A stretch of 64,000 nt of DNA from Candidatus Anderseniibacteriota bacterium. Its GTDB lineage: Bacteria > Patescibacteriota > Andersenbacteria > UBA10190. The notes under the pieces were generated by a model. It did no database searches. It was given only the letters and a program-made list of their open reading frames with translations, and was not told where the DNA came from. The stretch covers positions 410,544-474,543 of the forward strand of contig JACPWO010000001.1 in NCBI GenBank assembly GCA_016197005.1, given 5' to 3'. A program made the translations under genes and the position numbers. This document shows positions 7,402-62,520 of this stretch, in pieces; positions within the stretch are counted from its first letter, which is position 1; each line of letters begins with the position of its first letter.

Positions 7402-8586
7402 TTATTTCTGTATCACTCCGGTACCAGCTTCCGTTGTTCCTACTACCCTGATCCCTCCCCCACCTTCTTTATATGAGTCAGTTGGTATCATAATTGCGAC
7501 ACTTTTTTGATCCAAAATACTTACTTTTTTCAGCAACTCACTGCCCGCTGTTTCAGTCCGACTAACGACTGACCAATTACCATCGGTACACAAAAAAAGT
7601 GAGTGGCTATTTACTCCAGCCGAGCGACAATTAGCTTGCGAAGTTGGAGTGAAGAGCTCAGTAGTGTCAGCCACAGGTACTACTTCAAATCCACGGGTAC
7701 CATCAGGGAGCAAAAAGGGCTGCGTAACTGGATGATGCTTCCCATACTCAGCTGCTAACCATGATTCAAGCACCGCCGCACCATTTGTTCCTCTCATTGC
7801 GAGGGAAAAACTTGAGGAATCATTCTCTCTTATATCTATAGCAAAGGCTTCTGACTGTCTCAGCGACTCTAAAATATCTACTTTACTCGATGTTAAGCCA
7901 ATACCCGCTAATAGGTTAGTTTCAATCTGAGCTTTAATAGTTGGCGCTAATTTATGCAGAAGTGCGCTTGGTATAGAGACGAATAGATCTCCATTTAGCC
8001 CCTCATCGTTTTCCTTATTCATGGACATTTGAGCATCAGCTCCTGGTAACGTTAGTGAGTTTACATAGGAAAAAGAGAGTTCATTTTTAGCTTTCCCAGC
8101 GACAAAAGACAGGGGTTGGGAATTCGCATAAAAGGTATTAGGAGCGGCTGATAGAAGAAGAATGGGATTACCTTCGTAATAACGACGCATTAATATATCT
8201 CCTACCGTCACTACTCCTGCCCATGCTACTTCTTTAACAGAAAAGATGCGTGAATCTTTTAAAGAATGAATTTGTACGAGCCCATTTTGGATTGAAGTTG
8301 GTTGCATTACCAGTTCACGACTGGCACTGCGAGCATATAAAAATCCAGGTGCTTTTGAGATCGTTGCTTGCGCTTGTGAAGTAAGAATGTCTGCCTTTAC
8401 CCTCTCTAAAGGCAGCTGAGAGGGTAAATACTCGCCTTCTTTTACTCCGACGACAATCTCGTAATTATCCGGTGGTAGTAAATGCCAATAAAAAAGCAGG
8501 GATCGCGATAACCCCCAAACAGTAAGCAGTAAGATTATTACGACAGCTCCAATAAGTGCACCTATTCCCCAGTACCAGTAACGCAT
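7402..8586 (-). CDS. Hypothetical membrane-anchored protein (N-terminal TM, large extracytoplasmic domain)
   Basis: 394 aa. One N-terminal TM helix (WYWGIGALIGAVVIILLLTVW), no recognisable catalytic motifs, and a Gly-rich C-terminus. Confidence 0.55.
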   Translation of the reverse strand: MRYWYWGIGALIGAVVIILLLTVWGLSRSLLFYWHLLPPDNYEIVVGVKEGEYLPSQLPLERVKADILTSQAQATISKAPGFLYARSASRELVMQPTSIQNGLVQIHSLKDSRIFSVKEVAWAGVVTVGDILMRRYYEGNPILLLSAAPNTFYANSQPLSFVAGKAKNELSFSYVNSLTLPGADAQMSMNKENDEGLNGDLFVSIPSALLHKLAPTIKAQIETNLLAGIGLTSSKVDILESLRQSEAFAIDIRENDSSSFSLAMRGTNGAAVLESWLAAEYGKHHPVTQPFLLPDGTRGFEVVPVADTTELFTPTSQANCRSAGVNSHSLFLCTDGNWSVVSRTETAGSELLKKVSILDQKSVAIMIPTDSYKEGGGGIRVVGTTEAGTGVIQK

Positions 8587-8588
8587 AA

Positions 8589-10139
8589 TTACAGTGTGAC
8601 CTGTCCGCGCAGGGCTGGTCCAGCGGTAGCTGGCTCAATCGTAGCCCAAAAATTCAGGCCTGAAGCAGTGCTCGTAGGCAATATACTCTGCAAGACAGGA
8701 TTATTTGTCGTACTAAAAAGAGTTGGAGAAACTTGAGCGGCCACAGAGGCACCCGGAATTAGATTCTTCCACGCTGGGCTAGTAATAAATGGCTCAATTT
8801 GGCTCCTTGCAGCTTCTATTATCGAGAATATACTTTCCCGAGAAGTAGTTATCACCAAGGCATCATCAATGAGCGCATAATCGATGGCGACTTGGGACAA
8901 ACGATCAATATTCACATACCGAAGCGGCACCTCAAGGTAAGCACCATCAGAGAAAGTCAGCGCACTAGCCGGAGCTGTAAGGCCACTCATTGTAAGAAGA
9001 GTAGTGGTCGCTTCTTCTAAAACTGGGTCTCCCATTTGTAGAGGCGTAGAAAGAGTTGGTGGAACTTTTATTACTAAGCCGTAGTCAGCCAGGCTATCTG
9101 CTCCGACCCCCTCATAATAGACAAACGGCCCTGTAAGCTCACTTATAAGCTGCTGCTCAGCCGGATTTGTTGCTCGGTCGTGATACTGACTAAAGTTAGA
9201 TCCGATTACTACTTTCGAAGCATCGGGTGGGATATAAGCAAGGAGATCCGAAGCAACATCTTGGGAGGGTAATCCTGCTGGAGCTTGAAAGGCATTTCCA
9301 GAAAAACTAGCGATTGCTCCAGTGGAATCAAAAGAAATACCTAGTATTAAATCCTTACTCGTAACTGCTTGCGCTGCTTCTTCTGATAACTGTCCGGCAT
9401 ACAATTGATCAATCGTCAGTGTAAGGGGTTGAGCAGAAGCCGTCAGTATGTCTGGCCCACTTGAGGCTAGTTGCTGCTCTAAAAGATCAGTGCTAAATGA
9501 ATGCATAATTTTCCATCCGCCAATATCTTTTACCTGTACGTTGCTACGTTGAGCAACTAGCTGGTTCACTTCTTCATTTGCAGGCACCAGTAAGTAGAGG
9601 CGGGGATCGTTTGCTAAAAGTACATAGGCAAACTCTTGGACAGTCGTTTCTTCAAGCAACAACGTTGGATTACCAGCCAGTAACCCTCGCATACTCGGCG
9701 GTTCAATAACGCGGGCTTTCCAAACAGTAAGCATTTGTTGTCGCTCAGTCTCGTTCGCAAATTTATAGTGAGCAACTAATAAACGGCTAGCTGGGATTAC
9801 CTGATCCAGCGTATTCGCAACGGGTGTTGGCGTGGGCTGATTAGTAATAGTTAGATTCTGGGTCAAAAAGTACCAAGCTCCGGCGCCTCCAACTGCTACT
9901 AGAAGCAAAATAACCACGAGAAATGCTATGAGCTTGCCTCCACCCTTCTTTTGGGCAGGAATAGGGGCGCGTAGGGGCACAGCAGGAGAAACTGGTTCTT
10001 TCGTGGACTGAGCAGTAGGTGCAGGAGCAGTCGAAGATGTTTTTGGAGTTGGCGGTACCACCTGAGACTTAGTCGCAGTCAGATCGTCCCGCATTGTATA
10101 TATTTGCGGCGTAGGTTGTTGTGATTGCCCCTCCGGCAT
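8589..10139 (-). CDS. Hypothetical membrane-anchored protein (Pro/Thr-rich cytoplasmic N-terminus, one TM, large extracytoplasmic domain)
   Basis: 516 aa. PT-rich leader, TM helix LIAFLVVILLLVAVGGAGAWYF, and the same overall architecture as the preceding gene, 2 bp downstream of it. Confidence 0.55.
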   Translation of the reverse strand: MPEGQSQQPTPQIYTMRDDLTATKSQVVPPTPKTSSTAPAPTAQSTKEPVSPAVPLRAPIPAQKKGGGKLIAFLVVILLLVAVGGAGAWYFLTQNLTITNQPTPTPVANTLDQVIPASRLLVAHYKFANETERQQMLTVWKARVIEPPSMRGLLAGNPTLLLEETTVQEFAYVLLANDPRLYLLVPANEEVNQLVAQRSNVQVKDIGGWKIMHSFSTDLLEQQLASSGPDILTASAQPLTLTIDQLYAGQLSEEAAQAVTSKDLILGISFDSTGAIASFSGNAFQAPAGLPSQDVASDLLAYIPPDASKVVIGSNFSQYHDRATNPAEQQLISELTGPFVYYEGVGADSLADYGLVIKVPPTLSTPLQMGDPVLEEATTTLLTMSGLTAPASALTFSDGAYLEVPLRYVNIDRLSQVAIDYALIDDALVITTSRESIFSIIEAARSQIEPFITSPAWKNLIPGASVAAQVSPTLFSTTNNPVLQSILPTSTASGLNFWATIEPATAGPALRGQVTL

Positions 10140-57795: not shown

Positions 57796-58440
57796 ATGCA
57801 ATTACGCAAAGATGAGCATACAAACACTCGTAAACCGAAAAACGCTTTCGCGATTCTCCCCCTCGTTGTCTTTACGGTTATTTCTACGATTCCTCACAAC
57901 GCCCTAGCGTTTGAAACACAACTTGCTACATCACCAAGTCAGGTACTCTATGCCCCGATTCGTTTAGCTGATAAACCTACGTCTCCAGAAACACGGATTG
58001 CGGCCGTACCAGTTTCGCATAACCCGATAACTGTTATTGCCGAAGTTCCCAAACCAAAACCAGTGGTAGTAGCACAAAGTGCTCCCGTGCAAAGAATTTT
58101 TCCGACACTTGAACAGCCAGTTGTCCTAGAAGGAGAAGCTTCATACTACAGTCGCGCCGGCTGTCTAGGTTGTGACTCAATGATGATTATGGCAAATGGC
58201 CAACCACTCGATGACAATGCTCTTACTATGGCTATTGGTGCTGACAAGAAACATTTAGTTGGCTACCGTGCCAAGGTAACGAGTCTTGCGACGGGACAGT
58301 CTGTCGTTGTTAAGATCACAGATACCGGCGGATTCTACCAAGCGAAGTACGGATACCGTGTCGCTGATCTCAGCGTTGCTACCAAACAAGCAATTGGTAT
58401 GCGCGGTGGCGTCGGACAAGTTCGCGTCGAAGTTTACTAA
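57796..58440 (+). CDS. Secreted 3D-domain (MltA/YabE-like) protein
   Basis: 214 aa. Signal peptide, then EGEASYYS...MANGQPLDD...VVVKITDTGGF, the three conserved Asp residues of the 3D domain. Confidence 0.55.
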   Translation: MQLRKDEHTNTRKPKNAFAILPLVVFTVISTIPHNALAFETQLATSPSQVLYAPIRLADKPTSPETRIAAVPVSHNPITVIAEVPKPKPVVVAQSAPVQRIFPTLEQPVVLEGEASYYSRAGCLGCDSMMIMANGQPLDDNALTMAIGADKKHLVGYRAKVTSLATGQSVVVKITDTGGFYQAKYGYRVADLSVATKQAIGMRGGVGQVRVEVY

Positions 58441-58446
58441 CCACCA

Positions 58447-58478
58447 ACACCCCTGTCTGTCAGGGGTGTTGTATTATT
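58447..58478 (+). terminator. Rho-independent terminator
   Basis: ACACCCCTG-tctgt-CAGGGGTGT followed by TGTATTATT. Confidence 0.5.
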
Positions 58479-58483
58479 GCGCC

Positions 58484-59125
58484 ATGAAGATCCTCTACGA
58501 AGACAACCATCTTATTGCCATCGAAAAACGTCCTGGTCAGCTCACACAGGGAGATGCCACCGGTGATATTTCGGCGCTCGATGAGGTACGAGCATATATA
58601 AAGGAGCGAGATAAAAAGCCAGGTAATGTTTTTGTTGGTCTCCTTCATCGTCTGGATCGGCCCGTAGGTGGAGTTCTCCTGTTCGCGAAGACCAGTAAGG
58701 GTGCCAGCCGAATTTCTGAACAAATTCGAGAGCGGCAGGTAGAAAAAATATATGAAGCGTTAGTTGAAGGTCAACCACCAAAACACGGCTATATTTCCCA
58801 ATGGCTTAAAAAAGACCCTAATCGCAATTTCGTACGGGCATACGACAGACAGATCCATGGCTCACTATATGCCGAACTGGAGTATCGTCGTGTGTCAGCC
58901 GGGGAAGTTTCTCAAGTTGAAATCCACCCCATAACCGGCCGACCTCACCAAATACGGGTGGCGATGGCGAGTCTAAAAACCCCAATTGTCGGAGATAAGA
59001 AATATGGCGCGAAACAGAAGTGGGACGGACAACTTGCATTGTGGGCCACATCATTTACTTTTGCTCATCCTATTTCCCGGGAAGTCATTTCGGTACAATC
59101 TCAGCCTGCCTGGAAAATTGACTAA
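58484..59125 (+). CDS. RluA-family pseudouridine synthase
   Basis: Start at MKILYEDNHLIAIEKRPG; catalytic-Asp motif LLHRLDRPVGGVLLFAKT; HQIRV near the C-terminus. Confidence 0.85.
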   Translation: MKILYEDNHLIAIEKRPGQLTQGDATGDISALDEVRAYIKERDKKPGNVFVGLLHRLDRPVGGVLLFAKTSKGASRISEQIRERQVEKIYEALVEGQPPKHGYISQWLKKDPNRNFVRAYDRQIHGSLYAELEYRRVSAGEVSQVEIHPITGRPHQIRVAMASLKTPIVGDKKYGAKQKWDGQLALWATSFTFAHPISREVISVQSQPAWKID

Positions 59126-59205
59126 GAGGTGAAAAAGTGATACTATGAGAAAGTATCGATCCTTCTATCGAAAACACACAAACAAACATTGTTTCCGCCT
59201 TACAA

Positions 59206-59649
59206 ATGCTGCCTGTAGCAGCCTTTATTGCTATCTCCAGCTTCCCAGGACAAGCGTTAGCGTTTACTCAGACGATAGAAGACACCCACAAGATGACCTT
59301 TCCTTCTGGTCAGATTATTTCTGGCCAACTTTCTCCAGCGTCTTACTTATTTGAGGAAGGTTCAATTTTAGGGGTGTCAGTATCCGCCTATTCTTCTACT
59401 AAAGATCAAACAGACGGCAATCCATTTGTTACCGCCTCTGGAACGATGGTTCGTGAAGGAGTGGCAGCGGCTAATTTTCTTCCGATTGGAACAACAGTTA
59501 CTATTTTTGGTCGTATCTACACAATTGAGGATCGGATGAATGCCCGTTACAACGACCGCTACACAATAGATGTTTGGATGGCTTCTCGTGAAGAAGCACT
59601 GGATTTCGGCTCTCGCCGCACCCTCCTAGAAGTAGTGAATCTTCCCTAA
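59206..59649 (+). CDS. Secreted 3D-domain protein (YuiC-like)
   Basis: 147 aa. Signal peptide, then AYSSTKDQTDGNPFVTASGTMVREGVAAANFLPIGTTV...IEDRMNARYNDRYTIDVWMASREEALDFG. Confidence 0.6.
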   Translation: MLPVAAFIAISSFPGQALAFTQTIEDTHKMTFPSGQIISGQLSPASYLFEEGSILGVSVSAYSSTKDQTDGNPFVTASGTMVREGVAAANFLPIGTTVTIFGRIYTIEDRMNARYNDRYTIDVWMASREEALDFGSRRTLLEVVNLP

Positions 59650-59709
59650 GTCTTTTTCTTCTTAGAGGTAAAACTAGACAATTTTCCGTAAATCCATATA
59701 CTACCTGGC

Positions 59710-60222
59710 ATGGATTTGCTGCGAGAATTTGAACTCGAACAAGTGAAAAGTATTGAGCGCCCACGGCTCAAACCGGGTGATATTGTTCAGGTTGAAACGA
59801 AAGTAAAAGAAGGCGAAAAAACTCGTCTCCAGATGTTTGAAGGAACAATTATTGGAGTACGAGGAAGCGGACCTTCCGTTACTTTTACTGTTCGTCGCGA
59901 GAGCGGCAAATTTGGAGTCGAACGTATTTTCCCGTTATACAGCCCACTCATTACCAGTATTGAAATCATAAAGCGCCAAAAAGTGCGCCGAGCAAAATTG
60001 AATTATCTTCGAGAAGAAGGACGTCGCCGCGTGAAGGAAGATGAACTCTCCATGCAACGCTATGTAAAAGAAGAGTCAGATAAAAAACGTCTGACTGAAG
60101 AGGCGAAGAAACGAGCTGATGAGGAAGCGGCCCAGGCGGAAAGAGACAAAAAGAAGCAAGAAGAAACCCCGAAAGCTGAGACCGAAAAAAAGACTGAGGA
60201 ACCTAAGACAGAAAAGAAATAA
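59710..60222 (+). CDS. rplS: 50S ribosomal protein L19 with Lys/Glu-rich C-terminal extension
   Basis: The N-terminal 115 aa are a typical L19 (RPRLKPGDIVQV...FEGTIIGVRGSG...FPLYSPLI), followed by about 55 aa of KE-rich tail. Confidence 0.9.
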   Translation: MDLLREFELEQVKSIERPRLKPGDIVQVETKVKEGEKTRLQMFEGTIIGVRGSGPSVTFTVRRESGKFGVERIFPLYSPLITSIEIIKRQKVRRAKLNYLREEGRRRVKEDELSMQRYVKEESDKKRLTEEAKKRADEEAAQAERDKKKQEETPKAETEKKTEEPKTEKK

Positions 60223-60227
60223 CAAAG

Positions 60228-60252
60228 AACCGCTCGACCCGCGGTTTTTTGT
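60228..60252 (+). terminator. Rho-independent terminator after rplS
   Basis: AACCGC-tcgaccc-GCGGTT followed by TTTTTTG. Confidence 0.65.
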
Positions 60253-60287
60253 TTGCTAATATTGCAGTATATATCCTATCCACTTGC

Positions 60288-61013
60288 ATGGGAGTTAAAT
60301 ACAGCATCAACGAAAAATTCTTTAGTAAATGGAGCTCTGATATGGCGTATATTCTTGGTTTTTTATACGCTGATGGGAGTCTAGAAAACGCTCCTTTAAT
60401 GCGAGGGAAATATGTTCGTGTCTCTAGTACAGATAAATACATCCTTGATGCTATAAAAGAGCATTTAGATTCTGACCATACTATCGCTCTTACTACCTAT
60501 ACCAAAAAACCCAGATATTTATTGCGGATCGGAAGTCATATACTTTATGACTCTCTGGTTTCTTTAGGCTTAAAGCCTCAGAAGTCTTTAACAATGACTT
60601 TTCCTACTATTCCTACGCGTTACCTCGGCGACTTTTTAAGGGGGTATTTAGACGGTGATGGGTGTGTTCAATGCGAACAAAGTCTTAATGAACATGGAGA
60701 AAAAATATTAAAAAGGCTATCTATTTACTTTACAAGTGGGAGTGAAGAATTTTTGCGTGAAATGACTAGGCTCCTGGCAAAAACGTATGGGTTGTCCCCT
60801 CAGAAAACTCATCCTAGTAAAAGAGCATTTCAAGTACGCTACTCAACTGGCGATAGTATAACTTTATTCAAGCATCTATACGGAAAACGAATGAATAACC
60901 TGTATTTTCCAAGAAAATTTGCACGCTTTCAGAAATACTTTAACCTTAGACCGCAGCGCATTGATAAAGAAGTTGCTAAGATCTTAGATATGGCCACGTG
61001 GCGAAGTAGTTAA
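60288..61013 (+). CDS. Free-standing double-motif LAGLIDADG homing endonuclease
   Basis: Two LAGLIDADG motifs about 100 aa apart (ILGFLYADGSL and LRGYLDGDGCV). The gene is AT-rich relative to the window. Its 3' end and stop codon lie inside the tRNA-Cys gene. Confidence 0.7.
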   Translation: MGVKYSINEKFFSKWSSDMAYILGFLYADGSLENAPLMRGKYVRVSSTDKYILDAIKEHLDSDHTIALTTYTKKPRYLLRIGSHILYDSLVSLGLKPQKSLTMTFPTIPTRYLGDFLRGYLDGDGCVQCEQSLNEHGEKILKRLSIYFTSGSEEFLREMTRLLAKTYGLSPQKTHPSKRAFQVRYSTGDSITLFKHLYGKRMNNLYFPRKFARFQKYFNLRPQRIDKEVAKILDMATWRSS

Positions 61014-61064
61014 CGCGGCGGTCTGCAAAACCGCTATTCGCCGGTGCGATTCCGGCCGTGGCCT
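60992..61064 (+). tRNA. tRNA-Cys (anticodon GCA)
   Basis: GGCCACG...GCGGT-CTGCAAA-ACCGC...GCCGG-TGCGATT-CCGGC-CGTGGCC-T. Confidence 0.85.
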
Positions 61065-61082
61065 CAAAGTTCTTTTAAATGA

Positions 61083-61168
61083 GCCGGGATGGCGGAATGG
61101 TATACGCGCAGCACTTAAAATGCTGTGGCCGTAAGGCCTTGTGGGTTCGAGTCCCACTCTCGGCACCA
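61083..61168 (+). tRNA. tRNA-Leu (anticodon TAA), class II, encoded CCA
   Basis: GCCGGGA...CAGCA-CTTAAAA-TGCTG...variable arm GGCCGTAAGGCC...GTGGG-TTCGAGT-CCCAC-TCTCGGC-A-CCA. Confidence 0.85.
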
Positions 61169-61187
61169 AAAATGGTACAATATCTTT

Positions 61188-61649
61188 ATGCTATCTCTTG
61201 GAAGACTGGAAACATATATAACTGTATTTTTTATAGCAATGTTTGTGATAACTCTGCCCTCCTATGTTTCTATCCCATACTTTCTTGATGACAACGGAGG
61301 GAACCTACATTTTGACCCCAATCCTTCAATCCCTGTTTGGCTCCGCCCACTTCACAATGCCACTAGGGATGCATTAACCTTTCCGACTGTATATACACCC
61401 TTCCCTGTATATTTCTCTATATGGCTTCGCAGCTACCCTGCACCCGCACTTGAACCTACTTTCCCGTTTTCTCTATTAACAACTGTTGTCTTTGAACGCC
61501 TCATAATACTTTTAATATTCTTGTGGGCTATAAGAAAAGTAGCAACTTCCTACTGGGCAAGAGGAGTAATAGGCTTCATTATTTTATTTGATGTTGTTCC
61601 AGTGCTAATTGGTATGGGTGTAATGATGATATTTATGTTTTCTTCCTAG
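61188..61649 (+). CDS. Hypothetical polytopic membrane protein
   Basis: Start at MLSLGRLETY, just after tRNA-Leu. Several hydrophobic helices. Confidence 0.4.
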   Translation: MLSLGRLETYITVFFIAMFVITLPSYVSIPYFLDDNGGNLHFDPNPSIPVWLRPLHNATRDALTFPTVYTPFPVYFSIWLRSYPAPALEPTFPFSLLTTVVFERLIILLIFLWAIRKVATSYWARGVIGFIILFDVVPVLIGMGVMMIFMFSS

Positions 61650-61671
61650 GGGGTAGAAAACCTATCCTGTT

Positions 61672-62160
61672 TTACTCTACGTCTACCGGGAACTGAAGTG
61701 TGAAAATTGTTTTATCACCCTCTCGGTAGGCAGAGACTGCACCAATATACTTGTAATCAGGGTCTGTAGGGTTCGTGATGGTTATTTTATGTATCACATC
61801 AGCTGTAATATTTGACCCCTCCCGTGGAGCCGTTTCTTCAGGAGTAATCTGATAGTTACCATTAGTGTTACGGAAATAATTAACGTAAAAATTCATCACG
61901 TTAGCAGGCGTATCAGGCGTGCTAAAACGATACGTCTGCAATACCTTTGATACACTTTCACCTCTGGCACCAGGATAGATCGGTACTCCCGTGGGCAACT
62001 CTACGTTTTCTTCATTTTCCTGCGGTACATCTTGCGCTAATTCCTTGAATTCTCTCTTAAATTCAAGAGATATTAAGGTGCTCCACACGATAACAAAACC
62101 AACAGAGACCAACAGTGCTATGCCAAATCGCTTCAATACGATCTTAGTTACGTTGTTCAT
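61672..62160 (-). CDS. Hypothetical protein with N-terminal TM anchor
   Basis: 162 aa with a signal/anchor helix. Confidence 0.4.
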   Translation of the reverse strand: MNNVTKIVLKRFGIALLVSVGFVIVWSTLISLEFKREFKELAQDVPQENEENVELPTGVPIYPGARGESVSKVLQTYRFSTPDTPANVMNFYVNYFRNTNGNYQITPEETAPREGSNITADVIHKITITNPTDPDYKYIGAVSAYREGDKTIFTLQFPVDVE

Positions 62161-62163
62161 ACA

Positions 62164-62520
62164 CTAGGTGTAAACCGAATAAGCGACTAAACCCATAAAC
62201 ACCACATTCAGCCCCACTAGAATGAGAGCTGTGGTAAGCAAGCTTTTTGCAAACACAGGTTTGGAGTTTTTAGTTCTGCGATAGCCGTAACCAATCACGG
62301 CTAAAAAAAGTAGAACGAACGGAGCTGAATAGTAGAGGTAAAAATCTAATGTTAGCCGTTCACCTACCGCACCGCCTAGGAGCGAACCGCTGCGGCCAGG
62401 GACAAACAGAAACGTGAAGGGGATTACAAAGAAAATGAGTAATAAAAATGGGAGACAGCTAATTGTAATACCTTCGATAATCTGTCCCGCTTTTTGTTTT
62501 TCCTGTGGCGTAGCTTCCAT
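62164..62520 (-). CDS. Hypothetical membrane protein (3 TM)
   Basis: 118 aa. Confidence 0.4.
   Translation of the reverse strand: MEATPQEKQKAGQIIEGITISCLPFLLLIFFVIPFTFLFVPGRSGSLLGGAVGERLTLDFYLYYSAPFVLLFLAVIGYGYRRTKNSKPVFAKSLLTTALILVGLNVVFMGLVAYSVYT

Follow-up and report, generated by a model that had tools for sequence, protein, structure and literature searches.

What is a gene for a homing endonuclease doing at the very start of a tRNA gene in a bacterial chromosome? The question is raised by a stretch of 64,000 nucleotides (nt) from Candidatus Anderseniibacteriota bacterium (contig JACPWO010000001.1, positions 410,544 to 474,543; hereafter the window), in which an open reading frame (ORF) with two LAGLIDADG motifs lies between rplS and a tRNA-Cys/tRNA-Leu(UAA) pair and ends inside tRNA-Cys. 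An initial reading made from the sequence alone (the sequence-only reading) had offered two answers, namely a free-standing homing endonuclease for which the tRNA region serves as homing site, or the relic of an intron once resident in tRNA-Leu(UAA). Our analysis supports the first, and we consider it probable that the window gene is a selfish, free-standing LAGLIDADG homing endonuclease which has settled at the 5' boundary of tRNA-Cys: it is associated with no intron or intein, its junction with the tRNA is fixed across relatives, most comparable sites are empty, some copies are decaying, and sister clades sit at other tRNA genes. The second answer finds no support, as tRNA-Leu is intact, no intron core was detected, and the family-wide association is with the 5' end of tRNA-Cys and not with the anticodon loop of tRNA-Leu.

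An endonuclease gene flush with tRNA-Cys

The predicted protein carries the motifs ILGFLYADG and LRGYLDGDG, as had been read from the sequence, and the expected profile match was obtained, with Pfam LAGLIDADG_3 (PF14528) reaching 50.2 bits (cut-off 22.5) at E 3e-13. This match spans the C-terminal domain; the N-terminal domain is recognized through its motif and fold only. A model generated with AlphaFold2 from an alignment with 32 homologues (predicted local distance difference test score 93.5, predicted template modeling score 0.91) consists of two alpha-beta-beta-alpha-beta-beta-alpha domains. When this model was compared to the PDB using Foldseek, the top matches were exclusively LAGLIDADG meganucleases, with I-Tsp061I first (E 1.7e-11) and intein endonuclease domains, I-PanMI, I-AniI, I-OnuI, and I-SceI among the others; many monomeric double-motif LAGLIDADG endonucleases were matched at a Foldseek probability of 1.0. 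I-Tsp061I was also picked by a PDB sequence search, and identity to solved structures is 11-22%. Motifs, profile, and pseudo-dimeric fold all place the protein in the two-domain monomeric LAGLIDADG superfamily.

The residues predicted to be catalytic are retained throughout the family. Asp124 and Lys99 are kept in 57/57 tRNA-Cys-adjacent members and Asp29 in 56/57 (with one replacement by Asn), and all three are kept in 30/30 members of other clades. The ratio of nonsynonymous to synonymous substitution rates (dN/dS) is 0.08-0.14 in five pairs with unsaturated synonymous sites, i.e., intact copies are under strong purifying selection, at a dN/dS of about 0.1. Judging from sequence and model together, the window ORF encodes a genuine LAGLIDADG enzyme that is probably active. 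A protein database search returned 299 relatives at E below 1e-3, with lengths of about 240 aa and identities of 45-57% to the query; the named members among them are Patescibacteria. Automated annotation tags such genes as "hypothetical" or "intein-related".

The coordinates confirm that the ORF is placed between the rplS terminator and the tRNA pair (Table 1). Position 60253, first taken as its start, belongs to a short ORF of another frame, and the end coordinate 61168 is that of tRNA-Leu; the ORF itself starts at 60288, with a TTG-extended variant beginning at 60249. The claim that the ORF ends inside tRNA-Cys stood, but not the count of eight codons plus a stop: the 22 nt of overlap begin with the third base of codon 235 (Met), continue with six sense codons (ATWRSS), and close with the TAA, which occupies tRNA positions 20-22 in the D loop. 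The AT-richness noted earlier is real, with a GC content of 0.371 for the ORF versus a window mean of 0.466 (standard deviation 0.029); the ORF is the lowest-GC segment in the 64 kb, and no other 704-nt segment is as low.

The same junction is found well beyond the window. A genome scan queried with the single window protein returned no relatives, whereas an alignment-based scan, using one genome per species, returned at least 502, of which 80 loci were kept. Each ORF was translated from its start to the first stop. Among 54 full-length ORFs adjacent to tRNA-Cys, 36 stop 7-23 nt inside the tRNA, and 20 of these 36 end at -18 via a UAG at tRNA positions 16-18; the remaining 18/54 stop 0-12 nt before the tRNA, and 0/54 stop farther off. 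Since the same junction recurs in all 54, the overlap seen in the window is not a matter of chance. In alignments, many of the relatives' C-termini read G-x-V-x-K, which is the translated 5' end of the tRNA. Nearly always, tRNA-Leu(UAA) comes next after tRNA-Cys.

Sister clades, 33-40% identical, abut the 5' ends of tRNA-Asp(GUC), tRNA-Leu(UAA), tRNA-Leu(GAG), and tRNA-Val, and in a neighbor-joining tree the proteins cluster by insertion site. A few members occupy a minority position just 3' of tRNA-Cys or tRNA-Leu. The hosts belong to many classes of Patescibacteria and to several Omnitrophota, including one single-cell genome (L050), such that the same tRNA-Cys site is occupied in two phyla. 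Viral relatives (at most 37% identity) are near any tRNA in only 1/80 cases. As far as sequence comparison can tell, it is the rule in this family that each gene lies flush with the 5' end of a particular tRNA gene.

This layout also bears on the idea that the ORF formerly resided in a group I intron, whether in tRNA-Leu(UAA), another tRNA, or rRNA, whose ribozyme has since been lost. LAGLIDADG genes have been reported to be common in insertions in Patescibacteria genes for 16S and 23S rRNA (PMC7143001, PMC11809585), where they sit in introns, and the closest solved structure, I-Tsp061I, is itself an archaeal rRNA-intron enzyme. Nevertheless, an Rfam search of positions 59000-62500 at permissive thresholds (E up to 10) found no match to a group I intron or rRNA, and neither did a search of the whole window at the gathering threshold, in agreement with what the sequence-only reading had stated. 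Both tRNAs are also intact and full-length, as it had claimed. Every full-length tRNA-Cys-adjacent relative has its ORF outside the tRNA, at the 5' end, and in the tRNA-Asp clade described below the ORF is likewise outside the intron. None of the endonuclease loci has an intron in tRNA-Cys; the sole call, at the empty-site locus L132, looks spurious. We therefore regard an intron relic as very improbable.

Empty sites, decayed copies, and a promoter element

Next to the relatives retrieved through the protein, tRNA-Cys loci were sampled independently of the endonuclease by scanning metagenomes with a tRNA-Cys pattern. This yielded 117 loci, 87 of which have at least 800 nt upstream. The position before tRNA-Cys is occupied in 4/87, with two intact copies (L171 and L195) and two degenerate ones (L179 and L109), and about 95% of the sampled loci are thus without the element. 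The L179 copy (8392-8694) has lost an internal segment in frame and is down to about 90 codons, with promoter and read-through into the tRNA retained, while L109 (10842-11180) retains the C-terminal half, or domain, only. Further degenerate copies are frameshifted (L115, 4415-5177) or interrupted by a premature stop after codon 91 (L048). In seven further sampled loci, a related gene occupies another place in the Cys-Leu cluster, and one of these genes is frameshifted. The cluster as a whole is a hot spot, with about 10% of the sampled loci having at least one such gene, and L038 and L051 each harbor two different LAGLIDADG genes, one before tRNA-Cys and the other before tRNA-Leu(UAA).

Syntenic pairs of occupied and empty sites (L002/L013 versus L085; L003/L035 versus L152; L008/L018/L031 versus L139; L039 versus L166/L118) differ cleanly by one gene, which is inserted after the upstream gene and before the tRNA. 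The inserted unit consists of the promoter and the ORF only, about 0.75 kb. The tRNA-Cys genes of occupied and empty partners show 3-4 scattered differences and no consistent protective change, and the first 30 nt are identical between L008 and L139, which places the difference between the alleles upstream of tRNA position +1. Comparison with insertion-free strains, from which the homing site was to be defined, thus brought out a single-gene insertion but not its exact boundaries: the best empty-site flanks for the window are 65-79% identical at the nucleotide level, so the boundaries cannot be read base by base. Presence and absence at one defined site, with degenerate copies among the occupants, is the pattern of a mobile endonuclease gene. 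Such sporadic presence and decay would be expected of a selfish element going through invasion, decay, and loss, and not of a universal host gene.

The size of the insertion also speaks to whether the ORF might belong to something larger that integrated at a tRNA gene, such as a prophage or island. It is true that tRNA genes are common integration sites and that no part of the window is lower in GC than this ORF. However, the insertion comprises a single gene with its promoter, it is located at the 5' end and not the 3' end of the tRNA, and no integrase was seen among the neighbors, which are rplS and small membrane-like ORFs. The distant viral relatives, moreover, are not linked to tRNAs. The features of a tRNA-targeting integrative element are thus lacking at this locus, and we give this explanation next to no credence.

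The promoter that is part of the inserted unit is conserved in its own right. Directly 5' of the window ORF, which has no Shine-Dalgarno sequence upstream, is a non-coding element, TTGCAGTAT-N8-TATCCACTTGC, and the same element is found 5' of the ORF in more than 30 relatives. Since the synonymous sites of the ORF are saturated between most members, this conservation implies function. The element takes the form TTGCAG-N17-TATAAT-N6-9-(A/G)TG in 19 loci as well as in the remnant L179; in this form, the N17 spacer ends in TTACCACT and the start codon follows 6-9 nt past the -10 hexamer. This geometry predicts a leaderless mRNA, a reading which draws on general knowledge of transcription-start spacing. 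In about 16 other loci including the window ("type B"), the TTGCAGTAT...CCACYT block is kept 2-4 nt from the ATG, with a -10-like hexamer immediately 5' of the block; here, the block persists although it is no longer a promoter. The putative type B promoter of the window's endonuclease-tRNA unit is weak, agreeing with the consensus at 8/12 positions, which is under the threshold of the scan tool. We propose it on the grounds that better-matching hexamers occupy the same place in the type B relatives L005, L007, L008, and L011. The element is absent upstream of tRNA-Cys at every empty site examined, where ordinary promoters are found 8-12 nt before the tRNA instead (e.g., TTGATA-17-TATAGT in L085).

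We also considered whether the element mimics the 5' region of tRNA-Cys and could serve as an operator. This was rejected, as only the words GTGG and CTGCAA are shared, their spacing differs, and there is no co-variation with the tRNA; for instance, L001 keeps ACCAC despite a tRNA that reads GTAGCC.

Several observations count against a mobile, selfish element, or at least against parts of that account. First, the 80 nt before tRNA-Cys are equally promoter-like at occupied and empty sites (means 8.0 versus 8.1 of 12, p = 0.35), so that any reliance of the tRNA on the endonuclease promoter, as well as co-transcription, is putative. Second, no near-identical pair of endonucleases was found across different hosts, the nearest non-self relative of the window protein being 57% identical, and clades largely track host taxonomy, meaning that recent mobility is not demonstrated; from these sequences, much of the element's history looks vertical, with losses. 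Third, the sequence just upstream of empty tRNA-Cys genes is unconserved between lineages, which would require half of the proposed target to be degenerate. Finally, no empty site was seen in the window's own population, as contigs with an identical RplS are all occupied (2 of the 3 shown are informative). Endonuclease identity and tRNA identity correlate weakly (rho about 0.25), which is uninformative as to vertical or horizontal descent because tRNAs are short.

Some of these observations would be expected of a domesticated or mutualistic leader gene, i.e., of a protein and promoter that have become part of the tRNA-Cys/tRNA-Leu operon. Such a gene could supply the tRNA promoter, and its translation up to the start of the tRNA could guard the transcript from premature termination; alternatively, the protein could have a host function in DNA binding or regulation. 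The strong purifying selection is consistent with this, as are the deep divergence mostly along host lineages, the lack of near-identical copies across hosts, the retention of the 5' non-coding element even where no promoter remains (type B, window included), and a frame that, in the remnant L179 as much as in all full-length copies, remains open as far as the tRNA or beyond its first nucleotide. In contrast, the great majority of sampled tRNA-Cys loci do without the gene and have ordinary promoters of their own, copies such as L109, L115, and L048 are truncated or frameshifted, and the conserved residues are catalytic and not merely structural. The sister clades at other tRNAs likewise suit retargeting by a mobile nuclease. 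We thus consider domestication unlikely, though the most serious of the competing explanations, and retain the selfish endonuclease as the best account of the locus.

tRNA genes, introns, and neighboring features

Eight loci of the tRNA-Asp clade add a further arrangement. In these, the ORF abuts a tRNA-Asp(GUC) gene whose anticodon is interrupted after U35 and before C36 by an insert of 196-240 nt that contains no ORF. Without its intron option, ARAGORN found no downstream tRNA in these 8 loci, whereas all 8 tRNAs were restored with that option. Rfam identifies 5/8 inserts as group I introns; L068, with 59 bits, and L072, with 50.6 bits, exceed the gathering score. The introns are Azoarcus-like, each of the tRNA-Asp genes is directly preceded by a LAGLIDADG ORF, and the ORF lies outside the intron. 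We did not find tRNA-Asp as an intron host in a review of bacterial group I introns (PMC3984707). Further intron-containing genes were predicted in Patescibacteria loci for tRNA-Met, tRNA-Phe, tRNA-Leu(CAA), and tRNA-Thr (Table 1), and the intron in tRNA-Met of L068 was confirmed by Rfam with 62 bits. Group I introns in tRNAs may be common in Patescibacteria.

An endonuclease beside an ORF-less intron raises the possibility of collaborative (trans) homing, a pathway described for phages in which a free-standing endonuclease acts together with a group I intron lacking an ORF (PMC3984707). Under this explanation, the target would lie in the body of the tRNA, e.g., in the anticodon arm, and donors would be protected by the intron or by sequence variants, the gene itself being just a neighbor of its target. 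For the window, this is an improbable solution: neither its tRNA-Cys nor that of any tRNA-Cys-adjacent relative has an intron, and the few differences between occupied and empty partners are scattered and not consistently protective. Even within the tRNA-Asp clade, the intronless but endonuclease-bearing L078 shares its anticodon arm with the spliced L073, and so the intron is not obviously the protective feature.

The window's tRNA-Cys has U73 and no encoded CCA, and is unusual in its D-loop A18 and T-loop G55. Across an alignment of L001-L057 and the window, A18 (GTAG) in the D loop is always paired with G55 (GGTGCRA) in the T loop, and G18 (GTGG) is always paired with U55 (GGTTCRA), with the G18-Psi55 tertiary pair covarying cleanly. 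In the window tRNA-Cys and in many Patescibacteria, G takes the place of the nearly universal U55, and the same A18/G55 pattern occurs in three tRNA-Leu(UAA) genes (L038, L046, and L055). tRNA-Leu(UAA) is the conserved downstream partner of tRNA-Cys at occupied and empty sites alike. In six metagenome loci (L093, L137, L150, L168, L176, and L177), the gap between the two tRNAs is unusually wide (420-1040 nt) and gives no LAGLIDADG match, which means that something else is inserted.

On the left, the inserted element is limited by the rplS intrinsic terminator; the scan reports its hairpin on the - strand, and the T-run on the + strand was identified by eye. RplS itself is 170 aa long, with the L19 domain at residues 3-107 followed by a Lys/Glu-rich C-terminal extension of about 55 aa. 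The rplS ATG is preceded, at a distance of 7 nt, by the end of a promoter-like site, TAGACA-16-TATACT (window 59675-59712), and as a Shine-Dalgarno sequence is not discernible, rplS may also be leaderless in this organism. A gene for an RluA-like pseudouridine synthase, a 147-aa ORF with no Pfam match, and rplS form a block (window 58286-60222) which adjoins the tRNA-Cys/tRNA-Leu pair in several lineages (L162, L115, L117, and L105). In these four loci, the block is on the other side of the tRNA pair and on the opposite strand, which implies an inversion, either of the tRNA pair or of the block, in L012 and in the lineage of the window. On the right, a listed 174-aa ORF (window 61125-61649) begins inside tRNA-Leu; the gene callers used for Logan contigs give a 153-aa product instead (ATG at about 61188), which is hydrophobic and has no Pfam match.

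Table 1. Positions of the features discussed (window coordinates, or coordinates within the locus named).
Feature	Position	Strand	Details
rplS	59710-60222		Upstream of the ORF; Ribosomal_L19, E 4e-35
rplS intrinsic terminator	60228-60250	+	Hairpin AACCGC-TCGACCC-GCGGTT, then T-run
Putative weak type B promoter of endonuclease-tRNA unit	60234-60262	+	-35 TCGACC (60234-60239), 17-nt spacer, -10 TAATAT (60257-60262)
Conserved non-coding element	60262-60287	+	TTGCAGTAT-N8-TATCCACTTGC, directly 5' of start codon
LAGLIDADG endonuclease ORF	60288-61013	+	241 aa; ATG 60288, TAA 61011-61013
Motif 1, ILGFLYADG	60351-60377	+	Predicted catalytic Asp29 at 60372-60374
Motif 2, LRGYLDGDG	60636-60662	+	Predicted catalytic Asp124 at 60657-60659
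tRNA-Cys(GCA)	60992-61065	+	Intact; ARAGORN; Rfam tRNA 63.5 bits
ORF/tRNA-Cys overlap	60992-61013	+	22 nt; tRNA positions 1-22 (acceptor stem, D stem, D loop)
tRNA-Leu(UAA)	61083-61168	+	Intact, intron-free; ARAGORN; Rfam 60 bits
Intron-split tRNA-Asp(GUC)	L062 3645-3959		
Intron-split tRNA-Asp(GUC)	L063 2015-2305		
Intron-split tRNA-Asp(GUC)	L068 3640-3929		
Intron-split tRNA-Asp(GUC)	L072 3703-3973		
Intron-split tRNA-Asp(GUC)	L073 3653-3942		
Intron-split tRNA-Asp(GUC)	L075 3645-3930		
Intron-split tRNA-Asp(GUC)	L076 758-1046		
Intron-split tRNA-Asp(GUC)	L077 3662-3971		
Predicted intron-containing tRNA	L068 5153-5474		
Predicted intron-containing tRNA	L018 509-815		
Predicted intron-containing tRNA	L078 697-1001	-	
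Predicted intron-containing tRNA	L078 5921-6196		
Predicted intron-containing tRNA	L105 9892-10197	-	

Proposed mechanism and comparison with known systems

From this layout, we infer a cycle that involves cleavage activity, a target position, co-transcription with the tRNA, and consequences of RNase P processing and of a non-stop message. The mobile unit would be a small cassette of its own promoter and the ORF, inserted flush with tRNA nucleotide +1; the window's cassette would be a rearranged version with a short-leader promoter, while many relatives would be leaderless. The enzyme would cut endonuclease-less alleles at or near the junction of the tRNA-Cys leader and the tRNA, as the flush junction in every clade suggests that both the cut and the insertion point are at the tRNA 5' end. 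Recognition would be mainly of the conserved 5' part of the tRNA, with upstream variation tolerated. Recombinational repair off the occupied allele would then copy the cassette in, and the target, now split by the insertion, would leave occupied alleles immune without any change to the tRNA.

The tRNA would still be transcribed behind or through the endonuclease gene and then released by RNase P, which would have the role that splicing has for endonucleases borne by introns or inteins. Since RNase P removes everything 5' of the tRNA, the position would be phenotypically safe. In two thirds of the family, the window included, the frame crosses into the tRNA, where a UAA or UAG of the D loop ends it; RNase P cleavage would therefore strip the stop codon from the message, and the resulting non-stop endonuclease mRNA may keep the enzyme low and make the element self-limiting.

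A bolder generalization, which we offer tentatively and would not yet bet on, is that the tRNA 5' leader is an unrecognized "safe harbor" for homing endonucleases in which RNase P replaces splicing, that the element drives an essential tRNA via a leaderless promoter and limits itself via non-stop mRNA, and that the tRNA-Asp clade is a snapshot of the stage before entry into an intron.

Homing endonuclease genes in cells are thought to persist inside self-splicing introns or inteins, and free-standing ones are known mainly from phages. The family described here points to a third refuge in bacterial chromosomes, adjacent to the mature tRNA but not within it, where 5' processing would clear the gene's sequence from the RNA. 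For the Patescibacteria, this adds a second class of selfish DNA besides rRNA insertions. The relatives form 65 clusters (50% identity, E 1e-30 or better) of diverged natural enzymes, presumably specific for different tRNA gene sequences, and such a set of tRNA-associated LAGLIDADG proteins is raw material for meganuclease engineering. In addition, the tRNA-Asp relatives beside ORF-less group I introns provide a testable cellular case of a proposed route of mobile-intron formation.

In our full-text literature searches, LAGLIDADG genes of Patescibacteria were reported only from rRNA insertions, accounts of free-standing endonucleases within tRNA clusters concerned only phages and organelles, and no description of tRNA-flanking endonucleases of the present kind was found. 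What is known is the enzyme class and its general life-style; what is new is a cellular LAGLIDADG lineage for tRNA 5' boundaries, with its own promoter and a frame that reads into the tRNA.

As an enzyme, the window protein resembles I-Tsp061I, I-DmoI, I-SceI, I-AniI, and I-OnuI in its two acidic-residue motifs, its length of about 240 aa, and its pseudo-dimer fold, which here is predicted. Characterized enzymes of the I-Tsp061I type are encoded within inteins or within introns, group I or archaeal. In contrast, no group I intron encloses the window gene; it is free-standing, with its own expression signals, no intron or intein, and a conserved host tRNA gene which it abuts, though the window's promoter is weaker and rearranged. 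The LAGLIDADG genes of Patescibacteria rRNA introns share both host group and superfamily with the window gene, but they interrupt the RNA, whereas the window element is outside the mature RNA and has no rRNA or intron around it. Collaborative pairs such as cyanophage F-CphI/psbA and T4 mobE/I-TevIII have a layout that is matched by the 8 tRNA-Asp relatives (L062-L077) and not by the window's tRNA-Cys.

A parallel in life-style comes from phage T4, whose free-standing endonuclease SegB is encoded in a tRNA cluster, recognizes an 11-bp motif of the tRNA T arm within a 27-bp site with degenerate flanks, and drags neighboring tRNA genes along (PMC2330249). Similar to SegB, the window gene is free-standing among tRNA genes, is variably present, and is proposed to have an asymmetric target. 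SegB, however, is a phage GIY-YIG enzyme of unrelated fold that lies between tRNA genes without a fixed junction, while the window gene is part of a cellular chromosome, encodes a LAGLIDADG protein, and is flush with the tRNA 5' end, usually reading into it across the family. The window protein has the LAGLIDADG fold and not the GIY-YIG or HNH domain of the Seg and Mob enzymes, and its resemblance to these is functional, not by descent.

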